Source: Tricharina praecox
Taxonomy: Eukaryota
Length of the DNA: 40,863 bases
Reading direction: 5' to 3'
NCBI RefSeq assembly: GCF_024521635.1
Contig: NW_026250464.1
Span: 1 to 40,863, forward strand
In this document: positions 1 through 40,863 of the stretch, piece by piece
Layout: each line of letters opens with the position of its first letter
Position numbering within the stretch: position 1 is the stretch's first letter
Notes under the pieces: generated by a model
Seen by the model: the letters and a program-made list of their open reading frames with translations, nothing else
What the model was told of the DNA's origin: nothing
Databases searched by the model: none
Program-made: the position numbers and the translations under genes

Positions 1-642
1 ACCAAGCGACACATGCCGATGCTGGAAATGTGATGCATCCTCGGCTGGTTGGCATGGTACGATGCGACGACCGCAGCGGTGCAAAGTACCTAGGTACCCG
101 CACGTGTCTTTTCGGAACACGGTGACGGCTGCTTGACGGTTCAGCATCCCGCCATATGCACTACCCTCTCCTCTGCCCGACCGGCCGAGAAAACTGCATC
201 ACCGTCTGCCACAGCCTGCGAATGAGAGCCGAACGGCTGTGGAGCACCAGTAACACGAGTTGGTTACACGACCACCGGCGGCAGATGCCGTGGGCTGAGG
301 AGATACGTTCACAATCCGGTGGCTCGCCGCTCGCAGCGGCAGGTACCGGAGGTGAAGCTCAGCCGCACGGGGGGTTGCCAGATTGACTGGCCGACCGCGC
401 TCTTCTCCGCCGCCGCTCTTCTACGACAAACCCCCCTCCGCCGCAAAGCATCGGAAATGCCATAAAACGCACCTATTCCCCGCCCGGCTGTGTATTCCCC
501 TACCCAGCCAGCACCTCCATCCGCACTCGCAACGCTACGCAGGAACCCCCCGCCCTTTTCACGTCCGCCTTACCATCCAAATTTCCCATCCTCGATTCGA
601 CTCCATCCGTCTGCACTTCGAACAACCCCGCCATCAGTCAAT

Positions 643-980
643 ATGCGTTTCTCCCTCGCGTTCACCGCCCTCTTCCTCGCCCTCGCCGTCGCCGCTCCGA
701 GCCCAGGACCGAAAGACCGTTCCTGCTCACCCGAGCAGCGAATGATGTGTCGCAAGAGCGGCAGCTGCGCGGAGCGCGGTTAGTCTCCCCCCCCCCCCCC
801 CCCCCTCCTCTCATTGCCCATTCTCCGCAGGCAACGTGCTTCTGACACGCCCCAGAGTGCACGCCGGAGGAGGTCAGCGCCGGCGACCGCAGCGTCTGTC
901 ACGACCATGGATGTCCTGGCTACAACGCGTGTCTCGCGAGTGCGGGGCTGCCGCTGATGAAGTGTAAGATGGGAAATTGA
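643..980 (+). CDS. Small secreted cysteine-rich protein (86 aa, 8 Cys); exons 643-778 and 856-980
   Basis: ATG at 643 opens a hydrophobic signal peptide (MRFSLAFTALFLALAVAA). Intron 779-855 has GTTAGT donor, CTGAC branch and CAG acceptor. The spliced frame continues ECTPEEVSAGDRSVCHDHGCPGYNACLASAGLPLMKCKMGN to TGA at 978-980. Confidence 0.8.
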
Positions 981-2079
981 GTGGTATGGCTAGGGTCCTC
1001 TGGGAGGGAGGCGAGGGGGGAGGGGGCGGGTGGCGGGGACGGGAGTGTGCAAGAAGCATGTAATGCGAGGCGGCATAGAGAGGATGGATGTAGGAGGAGT
1101 ACTGAACGGCGATGTAATCGAGAGTCGTGGCGGGGAGGCGCCAGGTCGTGGACGTGGGTGTGATGGTTTTGTGCACGGTGATCGGAATTTGTGTGTTTTT
1201 TCTCGTGGTACGCGGGGGAATTTCTGTGCAGGGACGTGGATATAAGCAATTACTGAAAGCAGTTAGCTAGGAGAATGACACTTCAATTCTGCCCCGCTTT
1301 TTTCTGGTCCCCCCCATTGCAATAAATCTGTTGCGCAACGGGAGCGGTACATGGCGGGGTTGTGCACTGCTTCTGTGTTCTCCGATCCTGTCGAGAAGTT
1401 CCGTGTTCCGGCGGAGCAGATTGTGTGTCCCATCTGCAGGCCTCCTGCAGGGAGTGCCCGCGTGCCGAGCGGGGTGTGTGCGGGGAAACTGCCAAGCGAT
1501 GTCAGCACCGGAGGATCAATCTCTGTTGAACATGTATTGCACTGTAGAGTAGAGTAAAGTGTCCCTCTCTACTCTGATACCAGGCCTCCATCCAGTGTCA
1601 GGCCGTTCCTTCTCTCCATCGCCTCCAACGCACTCGAGCATCCGCCGCGCCGTCAGCCGACACACAGACGTCGGACACTCCAATAACTGTCGAGCGAACC
1701 CACCTCGAGAACACCTCTGGCCGCGATCTGTCGCTCTCGGCTGCTAGCTCCCGGTTGTAGCGGCGATCGCCGTGACAGCACTCCACCCCCGCCATCACAG
1801 CGAACACTCGCAGCGACGACATCGCTCACCACGCGCATCAACGCGACTGGGATGTGTCGCTGGAAACAGCGGGCGAAGACAGACCTGCGACACATTTCAC
1901 TGCGGCAACTGTGAATCCGATTCCAACAGGACCGATCTCCAAGCCACCCTGCAGCGAGCGCCATCGGCCAGTCCGGCGCGGCGAAGACTCGTAACCGACA
2001 GCTACGTTCCGGCCAGGTGATCCAGCGACAGTTGCAGAAGTGAAGCAAAGCTTGCTGGCAATCCACGCGAACCGCGAAA

Positions 2080-4494
2080 ATGGAATCTCTCCGCGCTCCA
2101 CAGCTGCACTTCCATTTCCCCCTAACGGCGCCATGCGAGACCCGGCTGATGTGTCGCGGTCCACTGCGGCCAGGCGGCTTCGAGCATTGGTTACGCGACC
2201 ACCCCGATCTCGCGCTGAAAAACACTCTGATCGACATCATCCGCTTCGGCGCCAAAATCGGCTACACGGGCCCGGAGCAGCTGATCGTCGGCAAGAATTC
2301 AACTTCCGCGTTCAAGGACCCGACGGCCATCGCTGCCGACATCCACAAACGCTCGGGGCTGCACCAGATCCAGGAGATCCCCGCTGCCCAACTGCCCGCA
2401 AAGTTCATCTCGTCGCCGCTCAGCCTCACGCCGAAGTCCGACGGCAGCTGGCGGCGCATCCACAACCTCTCCTCGCCCGCCGGCCGGTCCGTCAACGACC
2501 ACATCCCGCACGACTGGGGCACGCTGAAATTCACGCACTTCGACGACGCGGTGAACGCGATCCGCCTCGCGGGGCCGGGCACAACCCTAGTCAAGCGCGA
2601 CCTGGCCGACGCATACCGGCACATCCCGGTGCACCCGTCGGACTGGTGGCTCCTCGGCTTCAGCTGGGAAGGGCGCTACTACATCGACCAGTACCTGCCA
2701 TTCGGGCTGCGCACCGCGCCCATTATCTTCGACCTCTTCTCCTCGGCGCTCGAGTCGATCCTGCGCCGCGAGGGCTGGGACCTAACGCTCCACTACCTCG
2801 ACGACTTCCTGGGCATCATCCCGTCGCACCGCGCCGCCCCCGCCTTCATCCGCGACTTCGACCGCATCACCGCCGCCCTCGGCTTCAAGATCAACACCAA
2901 AAAGAACGACCACGGCACGTGCGTCACCTTCCTCGGCATCGAGATCGACACCATCGCGATGGAAGCCCGCCTTCCGCCCAAGAAACGCGCCAACGCCGTC
3001 CGTCAACTCAAATCCATCCTCCATGCCCGCCAAGTATCATTCTCAGACCTCGAATCCCTAACCGGCAGCCTCGCCTTCGCCGCGGGCATCGCGCCCACCA
3101 GCCGCGCGTTCCTGCGCAGCCTGTACGAGCTCCAACAATCGCACACGCGCAGCCGCGGCAGCGCTATCCAGCTCACCCCGGAGGCCCGCGAAGACCTGCT
3201 GTGGTGGGTCTCGTTCCTCGACGTCTGGAACGGCAAGCTCCGCCTCTCACCGCCGAAACGGACGTTTCGTATCTGGATATCCGCGTCCGGGGCGGGAGTC
3301 GGCGGGTACTTCCTCCATGACAACCAGAAGGAGCCCGCCGACCGCTCACAAACGTTCAGCACGCGCCTCCCGCCCGCCGAGCGCGCCAGCCCTATCGAGC
3401 AGAAAACGCTCCTCGCGGCCGTGCACGCGCTCACCACCTGGGCGGACCAGCTACGCGGCAGCAAGGTTCTGCTACGATGCAATAACGCGGCGGTTACGGA
3501 CGCGATACGGAAGAACCATATTGCGGGCGCGGCGAGAGCGCCGTTGCGCGCGCTTGCGAAGTTGGTCGCCGTTGGTCATGTGGTATTAGAGGTTGTGTGT
3601 GTTCCTGCGGGCGAGAATAGGTTGGCGGAGGCACTGGCGGGTGGCGATGAGGGAGGGGTTGGGGAGGCTTGTCCAAGGTTGAAGAACGCGGGGAAGGATG
3701 CAGGGAAGGAGGGGAGGAAGGGGGTGGAGATGAGGAAGGGCTCGGTGAAGGACGGGGGGAAGAGCGACAGTGTGAAGGCTGTGCAGAAGAATAAGGCTTG
3801 TCAAGAGGGGAAACAGAAGCCGAAAGTGGTGGTGATGACCGTGGCGATTGTGGCGAAGGGCCAGCCGAAGGAGAAGGCGAAGAATCGTCCGATGATTACG
3901 GTGAAGGAGGTATTGGAGAGGAAGCCGAAGGAGGCGGCGAAGGAAGCACCGAAGCCGAAGAGCAAACCGAAGGAGCCGGTGACGCCAAAGAATAAGCCCC
4001 AGGACCTGGTGAAGCAAAAATCGAAAGACGAGGGGAAGGCCACAGAGAACAGCAAGCAGAAGGGGACGGCGAACGACAAGCCAAAGAAAAAACCCAAGGA
4101 TGAAGTGAAGACGACGCCAAAGGACACGTCAAAGCAGAAGGTGAAGGACACGGCGAAGCAGACGCCGCAGAACAAGCCACAGAACAAGCCCAAGGATTCT
4201 GTGAAGCCAACGCCGAAGGACACACCCAAGAGCAAGCCGAACGCCGGCAAGGATGCGCAAAAGAACAAGCCGAACGACAAGCCGAACGACAAGCCAAAGG
4301 AAACGAGGAAAGAAACGCAAAAGAACAATCCGAACGCCACGGCCAAGGACATCCCAAAACCCAAGCCGAAAGAAGCACCAAAGCCAACACCGAAAGCCAC
4401 GCCCAAGAATAAGAATAAGAATGATACAGTACAAAACACAGCGAAGCCAAAACCGCAGGCGAAAGCCAACAAACCGGCGGCGAGCAAGAAATAA
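2080..4494 (+). CDS. DIRS/Ngaro-type reverse transcriptase + degenerate RNase H-like domain + Lys/Pro-rich C-terminal tail (804 aa)
   Basis: Uninterrupted ORF with tyrosine-recombinase-retroelement RT motifs: HPD..G.KIGY.GP, PKSDGSWRRIHNLS, KRDLADAYRHIPV, LPFGLRTAP, YLDDF (2794-2805), FLGIEID. RNase H-like fold at ~3265-3640. KPK-rich low-complexity tail from ~3680. Confidence 0.9.
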   Translation: MESLRAPQLHFHFPLTAPCETRLMCRGPLRPGGFEHWLRDHPDLALKNTLIDIIRFGAKIGYTGPEQLIVGKNSTSAFKDPTAIAADIHKRSGLHQIQEIPAAQLPAKFISSPLSLTPKSDGSWRRIHNLSSPAGRSVNDHIPHDWGTLKFTHFDDAVNAIRLAGPGTTLVKRDLADAYRHIPVHPSDWWLLGFSWEGRYYIDQYLPFGLRTAPIIFDLFSSALESILRREGWDLTLHYLDDFLGIIPSHRAAPAFIRDFDRITAALGFKINTKKNDHGTCVTFLGIEIDTIAMEARLPPKKRANAVRQLKSILHARQVSFSDLESLTGSLAFAAGIAPTSRAFLRSLYELQQSHTRSRGSAIQLTPEAREDLLWWVSFLDVWNGKLRLSPPKRTFRIWISASGAGVGGYFLHDNQKEPADRSQTFSTRLPPAERASPIEQKTLLAAVHALTTWADQLRGSKVLLRCNNAAVTDAIRKNHIAGAARAPLRALAKLVAVGHVVLEVVCVPAGENRLAEALAGGDEGGVGEACPRLKNAGKDAGKEGRKGVEMRKGSVKDGGKSDSVKAVQKNKACQEGKQKPKVVVMTVAIVAKGQPKEKAKNRPMITVKEVLERKPKEAAKEAPKPKSKPKEPVTPKNKPQDLVKQKSKDEGKATENSKQKGTANDKPKKKPKDEVKTTPKDTSKQKVKDTAKQTPQNKPQNKPKDSVKPTPKDTPKSKPNAGKDAQKNKPNDKPNDKPKETRKETQKNNPNATAKDIPKPKPKEAPKPTPKATPKNKNKNDTVQNTAKPKPQAKANKPAASKK

Positions 4495-5147
4495 TCCCGC
4501 TGGATAATCCTATCATTGGTACTTGAAGGTAGAGATGCGCCGCCGTACTACCTATTAGTATGTTTAATCTATCCTGTGACCGCATCATCCGTTGATCATT
4601 TGACCAGGACTGAGACAGCAGCCCGTGTGTCATAAGAGCAATCATCGTCGGTCACTCGGTGGTAGATACTGGGGCCCGCAGATTCCAATTGGTCTGATGC
4701 GGATTCCTTCAGGTTCATCTTGTACAGTTGTACTTTGAGCCTTGGTAGCTGCAACTATTCGGCACTTAACATATATAATAGATGATAGATTGGATTCGTG
4801 GATTGTGGTTTCAGGTATTCTTGTTGTGTTGTATTGCTATGTCCGTTTTGGTCGGGGCTGTTGATGCGCATGTGAATTGTGTTGATACTAAGTAATGGCA
4901 GTCTATACTATAGAAGTAAAAGAGTGATTACTAAAGGACTCGTTGGGATGACGAGCTTGGTACCGAGGCCCCAAACCAACCACGGGCGCCGCCGACGTTT
5001 CATCAGACATCACTCGGTGGCGTACCGCCGCCGGTTGTGAAGAAAAGTGGCATTTTGAAGTGGTGTACAGTGTATCAGACCTAGCCGCAAGAAAGCCTTA
5101 TGTAGGGGAGGCGGGGGCGCCTCGGATTGAGGCCGCTCCCCACCTCC

Positions 5148-5697
5148 CAGGACTGTCAACCGTCCGTCCGGACTACAGTCCACTAGTGGACTGTAGTCCC
5201 GTCCCGTTCCGGGCAGGCTTTCCAGAGGACTGATCCATTCCGCCCGGAGGATGAAGTGTCCGGATGCCCGCCAGGTACCTATGCGTACCTGATAGCACTA
5301 GCGTGCTATGCTGACGAATAGTTTGCGAAGTAGTATATAGCGCGGTGACCACCAACATAATTTTCAGCCCTGAGCAGAATTTTCAGCGTCGTCAAACAAT
5401 CGAGCTCAGGGGATAGACACTGCTGGAAGTAGGAACGGGGATGGTGTGAAAGTTCTATACCGTGAGAGACACTACGAAATGGAGCTGCACAGCCACACAT
5501 CCGTACACCTGCGCCACTGTGTGGCGCCACGCTGCTTGCATTGTCCTAGTGTCCCAGTCAATTCCGGGCCCTGTAGGGTATCCGTTCTCATTTCTCCAGC
5601 CCGGAGGACTGTACTCCTTGGTCTCCTCAGCCAGACTAATTCCGTCCCAGGCCGGGCAACCTCAAAAGACGGACGGGACGGACGGTTGACAGCCCTG
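5148..5697. mobile_element. hAT-superfamily MITE (550 bp)
   Basis: 22-bp TIRs CAGG(A/G)CTGTCAACCGTCCGTCC at 5148-5169 and 5676-5697 (1 mismatch). Perfect 8-bp TSD CCACCTCC at 5140-5147 and 5698-5705. No transposase. Confidence 0.9.
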
Positions 5698-6719
5698 CCA
5701 CCTCCGTGAGAACGGTCCGAACGGATACCGGATGGGAAGTGATCTCGTACGACACGGTACACAGAAGTTCGTGAGATCATGATAGCCGGTGCCTCAATAG
5801 GGGCTGGGTATCGACGTATCTATTGATCTATGGATGCAGTTTTGGCCTTTGAACGGATTTATGTCCGCTGAACCCTATCGAGTCACTGGTTACGACCTTA
5901 CGAAGAATCGCACTGGATGCTGCAATTTCCCTCGGTGCCGATACGTTCTTTAGTAGCTATCCGGCTATGTGCGTGACACGTCCTTCTCCTCCTCCGCAGC
6001 CCGCGTTGATTCGATCCATTTGGTACATTATAGACATGCAGAAAGACCAAATGAGGGTAGAGTGGAAGGTCAACCGTCAATGGAAATTTAATCGTCGCAG
6101 TGATTACTAGCGTGTATGAAATGTAGCAGTATGAAGATTGAAAAACTTGATAATTATCTCTCTCTTGCTGCCGCAATAGATCCACTACATACACGTGCTA
6201 TCTAGCTGACCTGCCGGCTTCACCGGCGACCAACTGCGCCGGAGCTGAATCACAGCGCTGTGGGCACTAAATCTGACTCGGACGCTTGATGTGTACTCCC
6301 GCGCCTAGCCCTCCGGCTCCCAAGAAGTTCGCACAAGGTATCGGACGTCTGGGTACATCTGACAGGTACCAGCGGATAGCCCTCCGACAAGTTGCTCGAA
6401 GCACCCCCGGACCGTCACTATCAACTACATTTGACGTTCTTTTCCGAGATTGACGCAGTCTGAAAATATGTAGGTAGGTCGGATAGTTCCACTTTACTCG
6501 ACTACCTAGTAGTACTGGTAATATTGTTACGGAATATCAATAATGCAACCACCGTCACGACGGAAATCAAACTGAGTTTCCGAAGTCCCCAGCGTCCGTA
6601 ATACTAGTACACATGACAGGCGCCCCGAAGGTCGACACCGATAATACAATTATAAAAATGCCAATTCAAACATTCATATCCGTGACCACGCGCTTGCACC
6701 TGCATCCCCGCCACGGCCC

Positions 6720-9370
6720 GGAAATAGGAACCGACCGCTCGTCCCCCTGTCAATGGTCGGTTCACAACCGACAACATGAAATCAAAAGCACATATGTTTC
6801 TCGGCTTCCCCGTGCGGCGCAACCGACGTAGTACTGCAGTAAGACAGAATGAACCTCCTGTATATTAGGTAGTCGGATTGCGATTCGGTTCCGTGGTTAT
6901 CGCTTTAGCATGCATGGCGGCAGAAGTGGTTGTTCTCGGATGGCGGTGCCTAATAGCGCGCATATGCTATCGGTACACGCGTCATCGCTCGTAGCGAGCC
7001 GAGAGACCCATGGTACGGGGAATTCAGCCGGGCATTCTTTACTCTGGATGATCCAATAATAATGGGACACCGCAGCCTGCAGGGGCCACCCAACATCTAC
7101 GCCGACCACACCGAAAACCATCTGAAACCCTTGGTCGGCATACCTACGAAAACAAACAACGATCGCGATCCAAACCGAGAAATATCCACAACGTGTAGTT
7201 CGGTAATACCTGGGTGGGGGTGGGATACCGTGGAAGATATGTGTTGTCGTTGGGCCGTTGGCCGAGATAACGGGACTACTCCCGGGGTGGCTCATCCGGC
7301 TGCTGGATCGTCGGTTATCGTACACTAGGTAGAGCCCCGAGTGAAATCTAATACTACTAGGTATATAGAGTACTCGTCGACGAGCTACTGAGTTGACTAT
7401 CGACCTTCGCTGTGGGATTCCGCTTTTCGTAGTGATAGGTATGTAGCGACGTCCCCAAAACTATGTGCTGTGTATGCGACGATCCTGTGACAATTCTCGG
7501 CAGAGAGTGCGATCCGGGGGAGCTTCGGCTGACGACAACACTAACTAGCAGACGCTATTGCACGCTGTAAACCGCCACCCTCGGGGGTCCGGGGATAGGC
7601 CGGCAGGGAGATTGACGGCGGAGACGAGGCGTGAAAGGACGATTGGTTGCGGGTTGGATGTTCCGCGTACAAGGGGTATCTGCAGTTCCTCGTCAAGATC
7701 CGAACGCGGGATTCGCACCAGACCACAAACTCAGAGTACACTTGTCTCATGCAGCGCCTGTCCGCGGGCGGGCGGCCGCCCGGGTGTCAATTACGCCGAA
7801 GATAATATCACCATCCCAACGGTAGCAAGTGCGTACCATGTCGGAAACCGCGGCCCGGATCAATCATCATTGATGGTATTTGAAAGCGGACAGCTGCGAC
7901 GCACTCGCCGCGCCGGGTCTACGGTTGGACATTCAGACTCCAGAAACCACGCAATAGGAACCCTCCTGTTCGCATCTAAAGAAAGGCCATGAACAGAACA
8001 TATGCGCTTGCACATATCATACAGTCGCACCTGTGTCCCCGCAACTAACCGGGGACCTTCAACCCGAGCAATCGTTCCTCATGTGTCGATCTTCAGGTCA
8101 CAGCCGACAACATGAAAGAAATTATCCGTAACCGACGTAAGACTGCAGTAATGTGGAATGCACCCCCGGTAAGCCGATGGCGATTCGGAGTGCCAGTGGT
8201 TGTCGATGTATGGCACATGTGGTTATTCTGTGATAGTGGTGCCTACTATAGTCTGCTACCGGTTCACGCGTCACTGCGCTCAACGAGCGTGGGAGACCCG
8301 CTAACGGTACGGGATTCAGCCAGGAACGATCCAACGATAAAGTAATGAGACACTGCAGACTGTAGGGGCCGACCACACTGAAAACTTTCCGAATCCGTTC
8401 GTCGTAATACGAATACGAGGATCAACCACGATCCGAACTCAGGAAAATCCATCGGATTGAATCGTGGCGTGCAGTTGAGAATTGTCAGGGTCGATGTTCC
8501 CAGGGCCTGGTGGTGAATACTGGTGGGGTTGTGAATGACCGCGATCGCCAGGCTACGCCGCCGGGGGTGGCTGATGCGGCAGTTCTACCGGATGATCTCA
8601 CAGTAGCATGTCCTCGTTTCTGCTTGATCGTGGGGTGTCGATCGTGCACTAGAGTAGAGCTTCGAGAGAATTCTGGTAGTACTACTACGGTTTATTTTTC
8701 GATTGCTGTGTTGGATTGAATTTCTTCGTAGTAGCCTAATATCATACGTAGCATGACGACCGCTTCCTGCGTCTCCGACGCTATATACATGCGATTATTC
8801 TGTGACACTTCTCGGTAGGTAGTGCACTGCGGAAGGATACCGGCACATATGATTGTCCGACAGGGCTTCGGCTGACGACAGCACTAACTAGCAACCGCGA
8901 ATGTCGGCTGTGACATGTGAACGGCTACTTTCGGGGAGTCCGCAATCCGGGGATAGATAGGATATCGACGGAGGCGGCGCCGAGGCGTGAAACAATGGTT
9001 GCGGGGTAGAAGCTTCCGCGTGCAACTTTGCAAGGGCTTTCTGCAGTTCCTCTTCGGGAGCGGAAGGCGGGAATTGCACGGAGTTACATACTCGTGAGTC
9101 GTAGATTGACTTGTCCAACGCAACCCATCTCCGTGGCCGGCCGGCCGATGGAAAAGTTGCCGAATTGATCCGAAAGGTCTCGGGCTCCACCGAAGATAGT
9201 ATCACTAATGGGTAGCAGATACCGCGTCGAAAACCATCAAGCGGGATGAATCACCGATCATTAATGATGGTAGGTAGTTGAAAGTTGACCGCTGCGTGCG
9301 AAGCTCTTGCCGAGTTGACCTTGCCGATGCCGGACAACCCGATTCCAGACTCCGGAAATCACGGAAAAGA
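6720..9370. repeat. Diverged head-to-tail tandem duplication (~1.3-kb unit, 2 copies)
   Basis: Collinear shared blocks offset by ~1.3-1.4 kb: CCGACAACATGAA (~6768/~8105), GCTTCGGCTGACGACA.CACTAACTAGCA (~7522/~8865), CTGCAGTTCCTC (~7680/~9042), CCGAAGATA.TATCAC (~7796/~9190), CAGACTCC.GAAA (~7934/~9346). Confidence 0.75.
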
Positions 9371-9442
9371 ATTCCCCCTCCCAGTTCGCATGTAACCAAA
9401 CGCCAGGAACAGAAAGAGTACTCTCTACAACCATCATCTCAA

Positions 9443-10607
9443 TCATACCGTGTTGTCGGCAAACAACGGGTCGTGACTCTTGCATTTTCTGATCTGGCGT
9501 GATACGGCGATGTCGTCTTCGCGGGAAAGGTTCGCGGCCGGAAGCAGGTTCATGGGGTGGCTGGATTCCGGCTGCTGCTGCCTGCTCGACTGCGGCACCA
9601 ATTCCACCTCCGCCGAAGCTGCTGGCGTACTACTCCGAAACTGCAGGCGCAGCTTCGTCCTCACACACACGCCAGTGGACACGAGCAGCGGCCACAGCGC
9701 GGGCGCGCTCGCCGAAACAATTCCAATCGCGAGCTCCGTCCTGCTTGCTGTCAACACGTACCGCCCCCCGCACACTCATCAACCGGCAGGATATGGTATA
9801 CTCACGTGGTCCAGATCGCCATCGACGTAGCCGTGCTACTCGGATCCACCCCACCCTTCACCAACGTCGCAACCCGGAATAGCCCCGCCACGCAGGCGAG
9901 GCCGCCCATTCCCAACAGGCACGCGACGGCGGTCTTCTTCCGCCATCCCAGGAACTGCACCCGAACGACCAGGAGTACGGGCAAAACCCACGCGAAGATA
10001 TCCAGCACTGCACTGGTGATCGGAGTCGAAAGCTGGATGAGGTAGAAGTTCAGACACCGCCCGTGGACAGATCCGCCCGGCGAAAACGAGGCCTTGACCG
10101 GGATGCACGTGAAGATGATCAGGAACGTGATGATGATCGTGAAGGTGACGTTGCAGATCATCAGGAGTGCCGCGGTCCGCCGGATCAGGGAGTACGGTGC
10201 GAGACGACGCGTCAGGATCAGGACCGAGACGCGGGTGAGTGCCGATGTGACAGGGTACAACGTGCGTGTTATGCCGTCGAGAAGTGCCTGGCTGCGGCCG
10301 GCGACTAGAGGAATGGACTCGCTCGGTTGGTCGAGATGGTAGTTGAGTACCATCAAGGAGTGGATCACGACTAGGGCGACGACGAGAAACTGCTCAAGAT
10401 CAGCATTGATGGCGTGACAACACAAGAGGAGAGGGCCGGGCTCACGGCTGAAAGGAGAATGCAGACATCGTCGCCGCTTAGCTTTCCCTGCAGCTTGAGG
10501 CGTGAAAAAACTCGGCCGACGAGGACCACGACGATGAGCGTGAGCAGCGAGAGGTCGACGACGAGCAATAGATGTGGCATGTTATACTCCGGGAGTCGCA
10601 ATGACAT
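9443..10607 (-). CDS. PTH11-like (CFEM-less) fungal 7-TM integral membrane protein, ~347 aa; exons 10607-10446, 10389-9806, 9740-9443
   Basis: Three exons joined by GTGAG...CAG introns with matching phases. Family motifs R.FSR...G.DD, IFTCIPV, LDI...LP, KK.AV..LLG.G, WT.TELAIGIVSASAPAL. Confidence 0.88.
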
Positions 10608-11099
10608 TGCTCCTGGAAAAGGCGAGGAAGATGGGCAGGATGGAGAGCAATGAGGGCACGACGGTCGAAGGGAGCGCACTTGGGTAACTATCCACATTTA
10701 CCGACTAGGCAAGGGAAGAATCCACCGTCTTAATCCCGATTACTCATGCGAGCCGTATGGGCGGGCAGGAGATGACAGGTAGCGGTGGTCGGCTATCCCC
10801 GCCTCATCTCTCCGTTCGACAGGATCGCTGCCCTGCCACCGAAAGGCGCAATGTGTACCTAGTTTGAGAAGCCGCCGCCGCGTGTTCCCCGTATCGTTCA
10901 CGTCGAGGATGTCTACTAATAGACAGCTTGACCGCATTCCAGTCGTTGCGCACGAAAAAAGCCAATCGCGAATAACCAATTCTGGTCCTGACGCAGGTAC
11001 CGAACATGAACGAGATGACCGGGAAAAAGCAATGACCGCACCCGAGACAGTGGACGCGAATGCTGGGGTGACAAAGCGTGGCAGGAAGCGACCCGCCGG

Positions 11100-11700
11100 C
11101 CACTCCGAAGATGTGCCAGGGCCAGCCACGCTAGCCGTTGGAAACACAAACCCGGGGTTTCGGCTAGAACTTGGAAGGTTGTCTGGATGATCTTGAAACC
11201 ACGGTGTCTCCACGCGTACTTAGGCAATTCCTCGGGTAAGTGCCCCGAGATATCATACTCTACAGATCGATAAACCGCACCCACGTGCGCAAGAAGATCT
11301 CAGCTCCATCCCTTGGTCCAGCTAATACAGGGAGAGGTTTTCAGGCACGCGAGCATCAGTTCAAGTGCCGCCGAACCTGGAAGGAACGACAGAGAGAACT
11401 GTGGGGGAGGCGGAGATGATCAGCGGCAGAGTCGAGACCGCAGGCGAATAGCCGACATGTTCGCCGATGAGCGGTTGGCGGGAGTAATCTTGACATTTCT
11501 CGGACACACGGAGATCGGAAGGAGAATCGATACCGGGAGAAGAAAGGCAGCGCGGCCCGCCGCCGAGCGAGCCATCGGGTGTGGACTACAGGGGCGAGTA
11601 GTAGAAAACGTGGAGGAAGGACCGAGGGGAGGAGAGGCGCAGCGGTCGTGGCAAGCGGAAAAATGGTTTGTGTTTTACATTGGCTTCTCTCGGGGGCAGG
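11100..11700 (+). mobile_element. Degenerate 3' fragment of a fungal (Tad1-like) LINE ORF2
   Basis: Frameshifted peptides QAREHQFKCRRTWKERQRELW (from 11342) and IADMFADERLAGVILTFLGHTEIGRR (11448-11525) resemble the C-terminal zinc-knuckle/end region of ascomycete LINE ORF2. Confidence 0.6.
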
Positions 11701-12211
11701 CGAGGGACGCCGATTAGCTACATACTCTCGTTGCGGCCGCTCTCTATCGTGCGGACGCCGTGATGTATATATGTCGCGAGATACGTCCATAAATTGATTT
11801 CCCGTCCCCCCATAGAGACGTTGCAAAGCCACCGGCCCCGGGGGTGGTGGTTGTTTCTATTTTTGGTATCACTCGGCAGTGTCATGTGATGAATCATGCT
11901 GTCATACGCCTTTCGCTGCCAGCTTTTGGTTTATTCAATCATCATTGCAATTCGAACTTAGTAGATCATGACAGATCAGGTACTATACTTATGTACTTCC
12001 TACTTTCTTTCTTCCCGCGGCTGTCACCAACCGCTGGGTCCGAACTAATACCGGTTCCCTATTGCTCACCGCCGCCCAGCCCACCCTGCTCGTCAATCCT
12101 CCCTGCCCCCTCGTCGCGGAATCCCTGGGCTAGTACGCCAACACGGAGAGCCACGCTTCTAGACTCGCGGACGGATTAGACTTGGTGTCACTGTTAGCGT
12201 TCGCCGAAGTC

Positions 12212-16343: not shown

Positions 16344-17789
16344 ATGGCCTACTACGACTGGAACGACGGTAGTATGACCTACCATGGTACCCAGAGTTAC
16401 GTCTACGACGGTTCTGGCTCCGGCGACGATGACATGGGATTCCCCGGTGGTGGCGTCGGCAACGATGACGAGAGCGACGAAGACGAGAGCGACGACGACG
16501 AGGGTGATGATGGCGAGGGCGACGAAGACGAAAGCGACGAAGACGAGGCCGACGAAGACGAGGCCGACGACGACGAGGGCGATGATGGTGAGGGCGACGA
16601 AGACGAAAGCGACGATGGCGAGGGCGATGATGACGAGGATGACGATGACGAGGGCGACGACGACGAGGGCGACAACGACGAGGGTGATGATGGCGAGGGT
16701 GATGATGGCGAGGCCGACGAAGACGAGGCCGACGAAGACGAGGCCGACGACGACGAGGGCGATGATGGTGAGGGCGACGAAGACGAAAGCGACGATGGCG
16801 AGGGCGATGAAGACGAGGATGACGATGACGAGGGCGACGACGACGAGGGCGACAACGACGAGGGTGATGATGGCGAGGGTGATGATGGCGAGGCCGACGA
16901 AGACGAGGCCGACGAAGACGAGGCCGACGAAGACGAGGCCGACGACGACGAGGGCGATGATGGTGAGGGCGACGAAGACGAAAGCGACGATGGCGAGGGC
17001 GATGATGACGAGGATGACGATGACGAGGGCGACGACGACGACGATGGTGATTACTATTTTGATGACTAGTAAGTTAAAATGAGGAGAAATGTCTGCAGTA
17101 TCTCAGCTTACGGTAGTCACAGCGACAAACATGACGGCTCGAGTTACAACTATGGAGTCACTGCAAGCGCACAATATATCACGGCTGGCTCAGGACCACC
17201 TCCTCCACCGATGCCTCAGGGCTACGGTCTAGACCCCAACGCTTTCTTTCAAGGTCAACCCCTCTTGATCTATGCCATCAGCAGGGGCGACTCGCAAGCT
17301 GCGGAATCACTTATCCGTAACGGCGCATCAATTGACCATTTAAGCATTGAACACTACAACATCACAGTGCAGTATTTTTACCAGACCCAGAACCGCTACT
17401 TCATGAACATGCTGGCGCAGAACAACCCTGCTCGTCACGGAAGAGGTTCTTCGCGCACTAGCGCCCCCTCACTGAGGCCGGGAACGAGGAGCAGTTCTTG
17501 CGCAGGGCGGTGGCCGGGTAGGGGAAGTGAAAGGGGCCACAGATCGGACAGGGGGAGTGGTGGAGCGCGGGGTTCTGACAGGGGAGGTGGAAGACGCCGT
17601 CGATCAGACACGGGGAACGGTAGAGGGCGGAGCTCCGTCAGGGGTGGAAGCGGCCGTGGGGCAGACGCGGGGAAGAGTGGAGCGCGGGGTTCTGTCAGGG
17701 GGGATGGTAGGGGCAGGGGCCCGTTCAGAGGAGGTAGCATAGGACGGAATCCGGTCAGGGGGAACGGTAGGCGCGAGCCGCAGTGTTGA
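16344..17789 (+). CDS. Hypothetical protein (~463 aa): Asp/Glu-rich repeat tract, one ankyrin-like repeat, Arg/Gly-rich tail; exons 16344-17068 and 17123-17789
   Basis: ORFs 16344 and 17079 join in frame through a 54-nt intron (GTAAGT at 17069, GCTTAC branch, CACAG ending 17122), which removes the apparent TAG. Ankyrin-like segment GQPLLIYAISRGDSQAAESLIRNGASID. Confidence 0.75.
16462..17045 (+). repeat. Coding minisatellite: 15-bp units in a 180-bp higher-order repeat
   Basis: 16561-16620 = 16741-16800 and 16681-16740 = 16861-16920. The third copy carries one extra 15-bp unit. Confidence 0.9.
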
Positions 17790-21535: not shown

Positions 21536-22045
21536 TGTAATGGCACGGTCGGGCAAGGCTCCAGGTAGCGAAGCCGGGCTGGGGGTCGGGTTCTGGGTTC
21601 GGTAGAGGCAAGACAGGTTCAGGGGACAAGGTGAGGCAGGGCTCAGTGCAGACGGCAACTGAGAACAGAGGCAGGGACAAGGACTTCGGCGCAGACGGCA
21701 GCCGAGGCAAGGGCAGAGGTAACTGTGATTGAATTAACAAGTTGTTGCGTGAAGAAACAAGTACAGAGGGGCAACGGCCCGTTTATATAGGAAACCCTCC
21801 ACTTCTTCTCGCAACCTGACAATAACCGTGGGCGTGTGCCAGACCCTGAGAAATCCACCTTGCCAGTACCCCGCTTCCGTGACTCATACCCTGCGCAGCT
21901 GCACTACCCCTGCTTACTGCACACAGCCCCAATTCCTCCGGCTCATTCCTGCATTGCCGCCGGCGCAGCCCCTTGCACTGCCCCCGCGCTGCCTTCCCAC
22001 CCCTGTTCCGACTCTTCCTCGAACGTCCCGTCGCGAGCCGTGACA
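21536..22045 (-). repeat. 3' LTR of the family A element
   Basis: TG..CA ends, preceded on the minus strand by the PPT. Confidence 0.95.
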
Positions 22046-36500: not shown

Positions 36501-37919
36501 TCGTATCTGAATATTCCTTCCATTCAACATTACCAAGTCTCCAACTTGATCAGCTGGTGCCTCCTGACGGTGAGCGTCAGTATACTTGCACATTCGTTCC
36601 AGGGCTTTCGCAAGGGATTTTGGGTTTCCTAGTGAATGGTGTGCATCCTGTGCGCATTGGTGATGTTGGCAGAGTTGAGCGTTTTGACTGCTGCAGGATT
36701 GGTGGCCGTAGGGTGGAAACCGTAGTTCGCATAGAAGGGCGTGATTCCAGCAGCCGGAGTAGTGTAGTTGTTATATGGTAACTCTGCCAATTGGTAGCAG
36801 GCGGACCCAGCCGTCTTGCGTGTGGTTCACACAGCAGTGTATGTAAGCTTTAATGGTTTGATTCACGTGTTCGGTTTCTCCATCGCTCTGGCGATGAAAT
36901 TCTGTTGATATGCGGGGCCGGATCCACAACAGCTCGATGAACTGCTCACAGGTTCCTGATGTGAACCGGCGTCCACTTTCACTCTTTCTGCTTGCCCAAT
37001 GTCACATACCCATGGAATTCGACACGGTTTGTTGACCACACGCATTTATCCACGTAGATTGCCAGCTTGTGCTCCTCTAGCCGCTGCAATACCGCGGTGA
37101 CTGTACGGCCATGCTCCTCTTGTGTTGCAGCATACATAAGAAGGTCATCACTGTGCGCAACGAGGCCGACGTCCACCATGTCGCGGAAGATGTTGTTGAT
37201 CATGTCCTGGAAGGTTGCTGGTGCGTTGGTCAGCTTAAAGGGCATTAAAAAAAATTCAAACAGACCGTAACGACATCGGAACGCAGTCTTTCATTTATTG
37301 CCTTCCATGATGCGGACCAAATGGTACCCATTGTTCAAGTCAATTTTTGTGAACACTCTCGGCTCCTAGTACACCGGCTTGCAACTCGGCCATGATGGGG
37401 ACTGGGTAGCCGTTAGCAACCGTTATCTTATTGATCCGGCGATAGTCTAGGCACAGAAAGAGCGCTCTCCCATCTGCCCTGGGTACACACAGGCTGGGTG
37501 CGCCTGCACAGGACTTTGCATGGAGGATCTTGCAGGTTCTGAGCATTCATTTGAGCAACTGCCTGAGGGCCTAAACTGTTTTCACAGAGGGGGTGTAGAT
37601 CAAGCCCAACAGCAGCACTCTTTCTTCTTTCAGACCGATTGCTGGATCATAGGGCTTGTGATCCGGCAATTTCTCGGCAGCTTCCTGTCCCGTGAAGCCA
37701 GTAAATTGTCTGAATTTCTGAGGTGACACGACCAGTGGGTCTTCCGAAGTTGCGTCTGTTGAGACACTGCCGATAATGCGAGCTTCGGAGTGGTGAACAA
37801 TAGAGGTGTGAAGTTTAACCGGCAACCCCATTGCTTGGTGCAGCGTACATGGTTCCTTGCTCCTTGTGCTGTGAAATCGAATGCTGCTGCCTTTGTTGAT
37901 CCACATCCCGGACGGTTGA

Positions 37920-38661: not shown

Positions 38662-40863
38662 CCGAACCTGAGAAAAACGAACTGGATTCGAGAAGACGGA
38701 CAACCCCTACGTCCGTGCCCAAGCCAAGAAACGGAAACCGACCGATAGTGGAGATGATGTTACACTGGGGCAACAAACAACAATGCACAATGCGAGTGTT
38801 ACTAGACACTGGCTGTTCTACCCCCCTCCTGGACTCCTCCCTATCGTCACGGTTACAGATTCCCTGGCAGAAACAGGAACAAGCCGTCAGCTTGCGTGGC
38901 TTCACCGGCGAACCCATCAAAGAAGGCGGCCAATATTATACAATGCCCCTTCTCCTCCAACACCGGAACCACTACTCCGAAGAAGTCTTCGAGATGACCT
39001 CCCTCGAACGTGGAGTGGACCTGTTCCTCCCCTTCTGATGAATAGCGAAGCACGCCCCACAAGGTGCTTGGGACACCCCTGAACTCAGCTTCAACAGCCC
39101 CTCCTGTTTAAAGAACTGCACTAAACACGCAGTAACGGAGTTTCCCCTAAGCTATGACCCGTGGATTACAAACACTCCGGACGCCAGGGTATTGGATACG
39201 TCACGGCCGTTGAGCTGGCGACGGACCCCTTGGAACACGTACCAGCAGAGTTCCGCGACTTTCTTGATATCATGAGAAAAGAAGCCGCAGATGCACTTCC
39301 GGAACACCGCTTTTACGGCCACGAGATCCGGCTCAAGGAAGATACCACACCTCCTTGGGGTCCGGTCTATGCCCTCTCGGAAGCAGAGCTCGAAGCCCAC
39401 CGAGAATGGTTGAAGGACATGCCAAGGACCAGAGAGATACGTCGGTCCACTTCCAGCGCGGGAGCCCCGATTCTCTTCGTCCCGAAAGCCCACGGATGTG
39501 GTCTACGCCTTTGCGTCGACTATCGAAGACTCAACCGCGTCATTATCGCCAATCGATACCCATTCCCACTCAGGTCTGAACTACAAGACAGGATCCGTGG
39601 AGCAGAGTACTTCACCAAGATTGACCTGAACAATGGTTATCACCTGGTACGCATGAAGGAAGGAGACGAGTGGAAGACAGCATTCCGATCACGTTATGGC
39701 CTCTAGGAATTTCTCGTTATGCCGTTTGGGCTGTCCAACGCTGCTGCTACCTTCCAGGACATCATGAATCATATCTTTCGGTATATGATTGATCTCGGCC
39801 TTGTTACCTATATTGACGACCTTCTCATCTACGCCTCTACTAGGGCGGAGAATGATGAAATAGTCAAAGAAGTCCTGCGACGTCTGACAGCTAAAAACTG
39901 GCCGTATCAGCGAAAAAATGCGAGTGGAGGAAGCATGACGTGGAATTTCTCGGTTATGTAGTTAGCCGAGAAGTAATCAAGATGGCAGGAGACAAAGTGG
40001 AAAGTCTGCTTGAGTGGGCAGTACCCCGGCCCCAGCGAAACGTTGAATCCTTTCTGGGCTTTGCTAACTTCTATCGCCGCTTTATCAAGGACTACGCAAG
40101 GGTCGCGCGCCCGTTGACGGAGTCTACGAAAGGTGATGAGAAGATTTGGGAATGGACGCCCGACAGAGACTACGAACAGATTAGCCGAAAGGCCGGGATA
40201 CTCAGGGTGGAAGATGTATGTGTTTATCGGAAGGAGAAGTTGTGGATACCGAACAACAAAGGCCTGATCCAGCAGGTCCTGGGGTCAGAGCACGATACCA
40301 AAGTCGCCGGCCATATGGGCCAGGACACAACGATCGAGTTGATTCGACGCAACTTTTGGTGGCCAACAATGGATGAAGCCATCATCGACTTGGTGCGTGG
40401 CTGTCCTGAACGTCAAAAAAAAAAGACAGCGCGACACCAACCCTATGGACTCCTAAACCCCCTCTAACTCCCTTACGCTCCATGGCAATCCATCGCTATG
40501 GACTTCATCACCGATCTACCCAAGTCCGAGGAATGCGACCAACTCTGGGTAGTCATCGACCGGTTCACTAAGATGGCGCATTTCATTCCCCTACGAAAGG
40601 ACAGCAAGATGGCCAGCGACCTCGCGATGATCTTCGCCCGCGAAATCTGGCGCTTCCACGGCCTACCCTCCGATATCCTATCGGACAGGGATTAACGCTT
40701 CACGTCGGATATGTGGAAGGAATTTATTTAGCTTTTAGGCATCAAGGCAAGGATGTCTACGGCGTTCCACCCCCAAACAGACGGACAAACAGAACGCCTC
40801 AATCAGATCATCGAAGCTTACCTCCGCTCCATCGTCAACAACGACCAAGACGACTGGGTTAGC
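38662..40863 (+). pseudogene. pol: Degenerate Gypsy pol (protease, RT, integrase; RNase H deleted), runs off the window
   Basis: VLLDTGCS, LCVDYRRLN, MPFGLSNA, YIDD, H....GH.G, MDFITDLP, SDRD. In-frame stops at 39036, 39704, 40465 and 40693. WEWTP jumps to the integrase linker at ~40160. Confidence 0.92.

Follow-up and report, generated by a model that had tools for sequence, protein, structure and literature searches.

Can a reverse transcriptase (RT) gene outlast the retrotransposon from which it derives, and carry onward an RNase H domain that has kept its fold and lost its catalytic residues? This question is raised by an open reading frame (ORF) at positions 2080 to 4494 of contig NW_026250464.1 of Tricharina praecox, positions 1 to 40,863 of which constitute the 40.9-kb window analysed here. 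The encoded protein is termed P0001. An initial annotation had described its RNase H as retaining fold and reading frame with all four catalytic positions substituted, and had attributed this to selective loss of catalysis rather than random decay. We consider it probable that the locus is an immobilised RT gene, probably a domesticated one, in which the RNase H persists as a structural pseudo-enzyme.

Relatives of P0001 were gathered by a word-indexed search of 5.8 billion proteins, and the best 120 of 269 were aligned with it using MAFFT. In the resulting 121 rows the RNase H region is marked by the family motifs WTDASG, HINxKEM, CDNxAV and NxLADxLSR. The catalytic tetrad reads DEDD in 111 of the 121 rows and STNE in P0001, where S401, T443, N468 and E517 occupy the four positions (Table 1). 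The sites at which the initial annotation had placed the substitutions (3280, 3406, 3481 and 3628) proved to be the starts of exactly these codons. S520 and R521 of the LADxLSR motif are likewise lost. The ten rows that depart from DEDD comprise four incomplete proteins, two proteins reading NEND, P0001 itself and three relatives, P0002 (DKDG), P0003 (DKDN) and P0004 (SEER).

Single-sequence phmmer searches of the Protein Data Bank gave weak matches only, and profile and structure searches were needed to recover structural relatives. A pairwise alignment to the Ty3 RT/RNase H structure 4ol8_A, weak in itself (E 0.67), placed S401 under the aspartate of TDAS, T443 under the second glutamate of GELELL and N468 under the residue following Arg-Thr in LRTNH; the family profile matches Ty3 4ol8 at E 1.4e-14. 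Furthermore, an exhaustive HMMER search with the RNase H domain across 1.84 billion cluster representatives returned 134 hits, and 134 sequences (128 new, together with P0002 to P0006 and P0010) were aligned to the family hidden Markov model (HMM). All covered catalytic positions were canonical in 108 of them and 26 deviated at one to three positions; replacement of all four, as in P0001, occurred in none of the 134. No protein of fewer than 442 amino acids carrying the RNase H region was found at E <= 0.001. Given what the DEDD residues are established to do in type-1 RNases H, the RNase H of P0001 would be expected to lack two-metal RNA cleavage.

The NEND tetrads belong to P0064 and P0068, family members from outside the window. 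The changes that recur among fragmentary representatives of the family are D-to-N and E-to-K, G-to-A transitions of the kind that cytosine deamination or mutation resembling repeat-induced point mutation (RIP) would leave in decaying copies. The substitutions in P0001 are mixed. A RIP-like cause was considered for them and rejected, D468N (GAT-type to AAT) being the only simple G-to-A change among the four, which D401S, E443T and D517E are not.

The structure of P0001 was predicted by AlphaFold2 (AF2) from a 67-row alignment. The predicted local distance difference test (pLDDT) was 94.3 for residues 1 to 540 and 95.3 for the RNase H domain alone, in which the order of elements, β1-β2-β3-αA-β4-αB-αD-β5-αE, is the canonical type-1 RNase H topology. 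The domain model was compared with 48,161 solved chains by a method independent of Foldseek, and the best matches were type-1 RNases H. These included Halobacterium RNase H1 (4e19_A; Z 16.1, rmsd 2.4 Å over 123 residues), LC11-RNase H1 (3u3g_D; Z 15.8), Sulfolobus RNase HI (3aly_B; Z 14.7), human RNase H1 (8swc_A; Z 13.6), HIV-1 RT (6uir_A; Z 12.5) and E. coli RNase HI (1goa_A; Z 12.1). In addition, Pfam RT_RNaseH (PF17917) matches residues 392 to 477 with 29.8 bits against a cut-off of 24.8 (E 7e-7), and retention of the fold, as initially annotated, was thus confirmed by profile, model and structural match. The only further Pfam row on P0001, KYNU_C, fell under its cut-off (E 0.18) and was not credible. 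With Foldseek, the 540-residue model matched retroviral, caulimoviral and Ty3 RTs. Since the best of these, 7o0h_A (E 2e-21), is a foamy-virus protease-RT construct without its RNase H, the P0001 domain appears to occupy the place of the retroviral connection domain.

The losses are concentrated in the RNase H. Conserved columns were defined as those with at least 90% conservation among the 63 A1 alignment rows that fall outside the clade of P0001 to P0004. P0001 keeps 50 of 54 such columns in the N-terminus and RT (residues 24 to 300) and 11 of 13 in the connection, or 61 of 67 for the two together, as against 13 of 21 in the RNase H (Fisher p 0.0036). The eight columns lost there are R393K, D401S, E443T, D468N, W507C, D517E, S520A and R521G, while the thirteen kept are those of the small or hydrophobic core (Gly, Ala, Trp, Ile, Leu) plus N469 and N513. 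Within the domain, the change affects all four catalytic columns and four of the 17 other conserved ones (Fisher p 0.012).

Constraint on the coding sequence was assessed by the Nei-Gojobori method (NG86) against L001, the recovered DNA locus of P0002. The proportions of nonsynonymous (pN) and synonymous (pS) differences were 0.125 and 0.714 in the RT, 0.255 and 0.709 in the connection, and 0.338 and 0.777 in the RNase H, nonsynonymous change being approximately three times faster in the RNase H than in the RT. A ratio (omega) of 0.67 for the C-terminal tail was discarded as unreliable, the alignment of low-complexity sequence being arbitrary. Between P0001 and P0002 or P0003 the RT is 79% identical and the RNase H 46%. 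In 113 DEDD-bearing pairs with RT identities of 75 to 80%, RNase H identity had a mean of 0.687 (standard deviation 0.046) and a minimum of 0.60; P0002 against P0003 is ordinary in this respect (RT 0.776, RNase H 0.669). The domain thus appears to be constrained yet relaxed, with the strongest relaxation on the P0001 branch, where the catalytic residues were all lost.

A tree was computed by maximum likelihood on the RT and connection columns, with the RNase H columns left out (120 rows; IQ-TREE in quick mode, LG+G4). P0001, P0002 and P0003 were joined with SH-aLRT support of 99 and P0004 was added at 98, the group being nested beside the DEDD-bearing P0006, P0008 and P0010 at 99. R393, W507, D517 and R521 are lost in all four members. 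The number of catalytic residues lost is two in P0002, two in P0003, three in P0004 and four in P0001. The nearest relatives thus share the loss of catalytic residues but not the replacements, which differ between proteins. Because they differ, the history of the clade would fit a release from catalytic selection near its base followed by independent drift. P0002 (909 amino acids) and P0003 (754 amino acids) also resemble P0001 beyond the RNase H, in that both possess long Lys-rich repeat tails with net charges of +41 and +33, respectively. Many members of the fungal DIRS/Ngaro family, among the best 120 of 269 relatives, are 35 to 49% identical to P0001, and the further loci L002 to L004 are 32 to 38% identical.

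Upstream of the RNase H, the polymerase is preserved. RT motifs A (KRDLAD, with D174), B (LPFGLRTAP) and C (YLDD, residues 239 to 242) are all intact; in alignment A1, D174, Y239 and D242 are invariant and D241 nearly so, and all are present in P0001. Since every RT motif is intact, the polymerase is likely to be functional. The model places helices at residues 300-315, 321-337, 339-354 and 367-382 in the connection. The initial annotation had also taken the reading frame as preserved, in agreement with a probability of approximately 8e-11 that a stop-free frame of 804 codons would arise by chance given the local base composition. Translation probably starts at M24 (position 2149), the residue at which P0002 and P0003 begin (M-C/L-R-G-P-L). 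The tail is encoded by imperfect DNA repeats with a spacing of 12 to 36 nt. Pfam revealed no second RNase H in residues 531 to 804 and no domain of any kind, methyltransferase included, after the RNase H; with no methyltransferase found by Pfam, the family may be Ngaro-like instead of DIRS proper.

Eight public runs cover part of positions 1500 to 5000, and contigs of four of them were placed on 1 to 9000. Run X1 yielded one contig of 3273 nt in which 1601-4557 is joined to 4608-4901 with 0 differences. Run X2 yielded contigs covering 1572-3640 and 3802-4557, the latter joined to 4608-4897, and a contig of run X5 contains the same 4557/4608 joint. The sequence removed is retained in record 17 of X3, a soil-metagenome DNA contig. 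Adapter-like loose ends of contigs occur at 1572, 4897 and 4901. The GT..AG orientation of the intron assigns the transcript to the + strand. X1, X2 and X5 were read as RNA-derived because two GT..AG introns are removed in them (this one and that of an upstream neighbour described below) and because they leave 5701 to 9000 almost or wholly uncovered. We conclude that a spliced + strand transcript is made from this gene.

Table 1. Features of the P0001 gene and protein (nucleotide positions in the window unless given as residues).
Feature	Position	Strand	Evidence or remark
Transcript stretch covered by X1/X2 contigs, minimal mRNA extent	1572..4901	+	Contigs; cannot show true ends or levels
ORF, 804 codons plus stop (P0001)	2080..4494	+	Open frame, translation
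RT domain, residues 118-289	2431..2946	+	Pfam RVT_1, E 2.6e-14
Helical thumb/connection between RT and RNase H, residues 301-390	2980..3249	+	AF2 model
RNase H-fold domain without catalytic tetrad, residues 391-530	3250..3669	+	Pfam PF17917, AF2, structural matches
Codon S401, first catalytic Asp position (family WTDAS, here WISAS)	3280..3282	+	D in 117/121 rows
Codon T443, catalytic Glu position (family HINxKEM, here PIEQKTL)	3406..3408	+	E in 117/121 rows
Codon N468, second catalytic Asp position (family CDN, here CNN)	3481..3483	+	D in 114/121 rows
Codon E517, last catalytic Asp position (family LADxLSR, here LAEALAG)	3628..3630	+	D in 113/121 rows
Lys/Pro-rich low-complexity tail, residues ~545-804	3712..4491	+	27% K, 13% P, net charge +47
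50-nt GT..AG intron in 3' untranslated region (UTR)	4558..4607	+	Removed in X1, X2, X5; 63 nt past stop codon
RNase H strands β1, β2, β3, β4, β5	Residues 395-402, 406-413, 425-429, 462-467, 502-507		AF2
RNase H helices αA, αB, αD, αE	Residues 439-453, 470-478, 483-498, 510-521		AF2

Taken together, the open ORF, the retained structural residues, the low pN, the intact RT motifs and the splicing support selective loss of catalysis over random decay, as does the absence of catalytic residues from the closest relatives. The original proposal of selective loss therefore stands in respect of the preserved core, the excess of pS over pN, the RT motifs and transcription; it has to be tempered by the relaxation of the domain (identity 0.46 against a mean of 0.687). 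Two features of a domesticated gene were found, namely purifying selection (pN far below pS) and a normal spliced mRNA.

On the reading that we favour, the gene would descend from the pol (RT/RNase H) of a fungal DIRS/Ngaro-type tyrosine-recombinase retrotransposon, of which the recognisable element has gone. The RNase H has retained its fold and hydrophobic core whilst losing its metal-binding carboxylates (now S401, T443, N468 and E517) and adjoining polar residues, and weaker but real purifying selection holds what is left. We infer a structural role for the domain, most likely that of a 'connection'-type module supporting the polymerase and the nucleic-acid duplex, as the RNase H-derived connection (tether) domain does in retroviral RTs, and likewise polymerase activity and the status of a host (domesticated) gene. 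The polycationic and presumably disordered tail has been added at the C-terminus and probably serves in nucleic-acid binding or nuclear localisation.

Several points weigh against this reading. The RNase H domain is, judged by identity, clearly under relaxed constraint (0.46 against a minimum of 0.60 in DEDD-bearing pairs), and synonymous sites are saturated in the comparison with L001, so that omega provides bounds only. Active transposon lineages also undergo purifying selection. The input to AF2 consisted mostly of active homologues, and the high confidence of the model is in part that of the family and less that of P0001 itself. Both catalytic death and polymerase activity are read from sequence, and the domain does contain clade-specific acidic residues, E440 and D474. 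The kinds of runs X1, X2 and X5 were guessed, and X5 is labelled 'DNA?' yet contains the spliced form. Synteny offered no help: when the 1.6 kb downstream of L001 was compared with the window by blastn and tblastx, only a 17-nt chance match was found. The window is rich in transposons, and X1 and X2 have loose contig ends, at 2251 and 2680, that hint at a related RT transcript in the same runs.

The last two of these points lend themselves to the main rival explanation, in which the gene belongs to a still-mobile, non-autonomous lineage that is under selection as an element and obtains gag, recombinase and RNase H activity in trans, from autonomous relatives or host RNase H1. The family is one of transposons: its full-length member P0095 carries a gag-CCHC region, RT/RNase H and a recombinase-like C-terminus. 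Moreover, many retroelements function without an RNase H of their own, among them LINE-1, group II introns and retrons. The surroundings of the ORF speak against mobility. A repeat search of 1 to 12000 found no terminal repeats flanking the ORF, whether inverted or of the split direct A-pol-B-A-B type, and none of the 127 other window ORFs of at least 90 amino acids matched gag or tyrosine recombinase (YR) in Pfam. By tblastn, residues 455 to 965 of P0095 matched at the ORF and a weak RT-to-RT match fell in a gypsy element; the gag and YR parts of P0095 had no match in the window. The N-terminus of the RT is where the ORF begins, as in P0002 and P0003, and the 40.9-kb window contains the gene only once. 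The clade proteins are singletons in 90%-identity clusters (one member and one contig each for P0002 and P0003; one member and three contigs for P0004), and several DEDD relatives represent 19 to 39 members. Word depth in X3 was 8.5 to 9 over the gene against 6.7 to 8.6 in flanking contigs, depth not being copy number. Finally, a defective copy would not typically splice an intron in its 3' UTR or have a Lys-rich tail that is conserved at 64% identity. On balance we regard continuing mobility as unlikely, and domestication of an immobilised gene as the better account of the locus.

If the gene were instead a plain decaying pol remnant, the four substitutions would be neutral, and the open frame and transcription incidental. 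Some observations would suit this: the RNase H evolves unusually fast on the P0001 branch, and isolated D-to-N or E-to-K changes turn up in various fragmentary members of the family, 26 of the 134 aligned sequences deviating at one or more covered catalytic positions. The X3 variants listed in the ORF are 3003 T>C and 4278 C>T (both third positions), 3476 G>A (R466Q) and 3535 A>G (R486G); those in the RNase H are both nonsynonymous, although two are too few for a test, as is the whole set for pN/pS. Decay is nevertheless hard to reconcile with a frame so improbable by chance, with pN far below pS in every domain, with the retention of 50 of 54 conserved RT columns and RNase H substitutions that spare the structural core, or with relatives at 64% identity sharing the same architecture, and we deem it very improbable.

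Least credible of all is an RNase H kept active by relocated acidic residues, with E440 (three residues before T443) standing in for the catalytic glutamate and E517 as a conservative substitute for the last aspartate, since, for all that position 440 is acidic in P0001 to P0003 (E, D and D) against 3 of 117 other rows and position 474 in the same three proteins against 4 of 117, the central aspartate positions of P0001 are filled by S401 and N468, neither of which has an acidic neighbour, the equivalent aspartates being indispensable metal ligands in characterised type-1 RNases H (D10 and D70 in E. coli RNase H), and the neighbouring conserved S520 and R521 are gone as well. A rebuilt site is thus unlikely in P0001, where positions 401 and 468 are Ser and Asn; P0002 and P0003 retain both central aspartates, and such a site may exist in those two.

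Extending the preferred reading of a domesticated gene to its relatives, P0001 to P0003, and perhaps P0004, could represent an undescribed family of host-retained fungal RTs derived from the pol of a tyrosine-recombinase retrotransposon, with a non-catalytic RNase H scaffold and a polycationic tail. We advance this only tentatively and hold it to be rather doubtful as it stands. Were it true, the cDNA would stay paired with its RNA template as a persistent RNA:DNA hybrid unless host RNase H acted on it, and the tail could anchor the enzyme, or what it makes, to chromatin or nucleic acid. Template reuse and stable hybrid binding, which the initial annotation had proposed, would be possible consequences of the catalytic loss; the loss of the conserved polar or basic residues R393, S520 and R521 beside the site argues, if anything, against tight binding of a hybrid by the domain itself.

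Other features of the window were recorded. Contigs of X1 and X2 match only 2251 to 2680 of the RT region and continue on both sides into unlike sequence, one reading ...QFLPFGL..., which suggests that the organism has a related RT paralogue with a transcript of its own. Upstream of the P0001 gene, at 473 to 993 (+), lies a neighbouring transcribed gene with a 77-nt GT..AG intron (778 to 854) that is spliced in X1, X2 and X5; record 13 of X3 enters this intron by 28 nt and was not counted as bridging it. The joined exons encode a Cys-rich protein of approximately 87 amino acids with a start resembling a signal peptide, MRFSLAFTALFLALAVAAP, a candidate small secreted protein. An ORF at 9805 to 10581 (-) with a fungal rhodopsin-type membrane domain (Fung_rhodopsin, PF20684, E 3.5e-23) supports a fungal origin of the window.

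Several transposons and repeats were also identified. An apparently intact Ty3/gypsy chromovirus occupies 21946 to 26422 (-), with a gag ORF at 25490 to 26422 and a pol ORF of 1327 amino acids containing RT, RNase H, integrase zinc finger and core, an SH3-like domain and a chromodomain. Fragments of long-terminal-repeat (LTR) retrotransposon RT and integrase at 36982-37290 (-), 39158-39703 (+) and 39895-40464 (+) form a transposon cluster at the end of the window. The 550-bp stretch at 5148 to 5697 lies between 22-nt inverted repeats that are 95% complementary; summed contig word depth in X3 is 177 to 309 over it against approximately 7 to 12 in its flanks, and many X3 contigs depart from the window exactly at 5147/5148 and 5697/5698, into dissimilar sequence. 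This looks like a multi-copy transposon of the miniature inverted-repeat (MITE) type. A tract at 16458 to 17041 consists of approximately 39 copies of the 15-nt repeat GGCGACGATGACGAG with a higher-order period of 180 nt; it is open in six frames, the + strand encoding an acidic tract rich in Asp, Glu and Gly. Several blocks of 29 to 56 nt are shared at approximately 80% identity, in the same order, by 6748-7718 and 8084-9079, some 1.3 kb apart, in what looks like an old tandem duplication of approximately 1 kb.

How does this gene compare with known systems? Among solved RTs whose RNase H occupies this position, that of Ty3 is the closest (4ol8; Z 9.8 over 91 residues); its RNase H is active, whereas P0001 reads S, T, N and E at the corresponding catalytic positions. 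Domesticated or cellular RT genes include the rvt genes, telomerase and Prp8 with its RT/RNase H-like core. Like P0001, these are RT-derived, expressed and without transposon hallmarks; they belong to different RT lineages. Prp8 carries a non-catalytic RNase H-like domain and is among the weaker structural matches of our domain model (Z 5.6 to 6.3). If P0001 is host-retained, the few cellular RTs would gain a member of new origin, and there would be a natural enzyme with an active RT and a dead RNase H for which templates and products could be sought directly.

Fungal DIRS and Ngaro elements, as set out in PMC3783388, comprise gag, pol (RT and RNase H, with a methyltransferase in DIRS), YR and flanking repeats. 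P0001 shares their RT/RNase H sequence family. The window searches found its gene to differ from them in having no gag, recombinase, methyltransferase, terminal repeats or catalytic tetrad, and in two extra features, a polycationic tail and an intron that is spliced out of the 3' UTR. The titles and opening lines of abstracts surveyed in the literature contained no description of a DIRS/Ngaro-derived RT gene that was domesticated or had an inactivated RNase H.

The nearest functional parallel lies in other lineages. PMC4408406 reports that the tether of retroviruses and the native RNase H (gRNH) of plant Tat elements both have a degenerate DEDD, an additional RNase H having been acquired in each case. 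As in P0001, the retroviral connection/tether and the Tat Ty3/gypsy gRNH retain an RNase H fold after the RT thumb without DEDD, and our family profile aligns the foamy-virus connection with the WTDAS strand of the P0001 family. Two differences separate them: in tether and Tat a second, active RNase H lies downstream, whereas P0001 has a Lys/Pro-rich tail in which Pfam finds no RNase H-like domain; and the P0001 lineage is of the tyrosine-recombinase retrotransposon type, whereas tether and Tat are retroviral or Ty3/gypsy. The clade of P0001 to P0004 forms a stepwise series, with two, three and four residues lost, in which the active site erodes and the fold is kept once catalysis is no longer selected. 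Catalysis-dead RNase H scaffolds are thus known from settings such as the retroviral tether and plant Tat, in which the task had passed to a second RNase H; what appears new here is that an open, constrained and transcribed gene, with no other transposon part left, shows the same conversion in another retroelement lineage, where no nuclease has replaced the lost activity.

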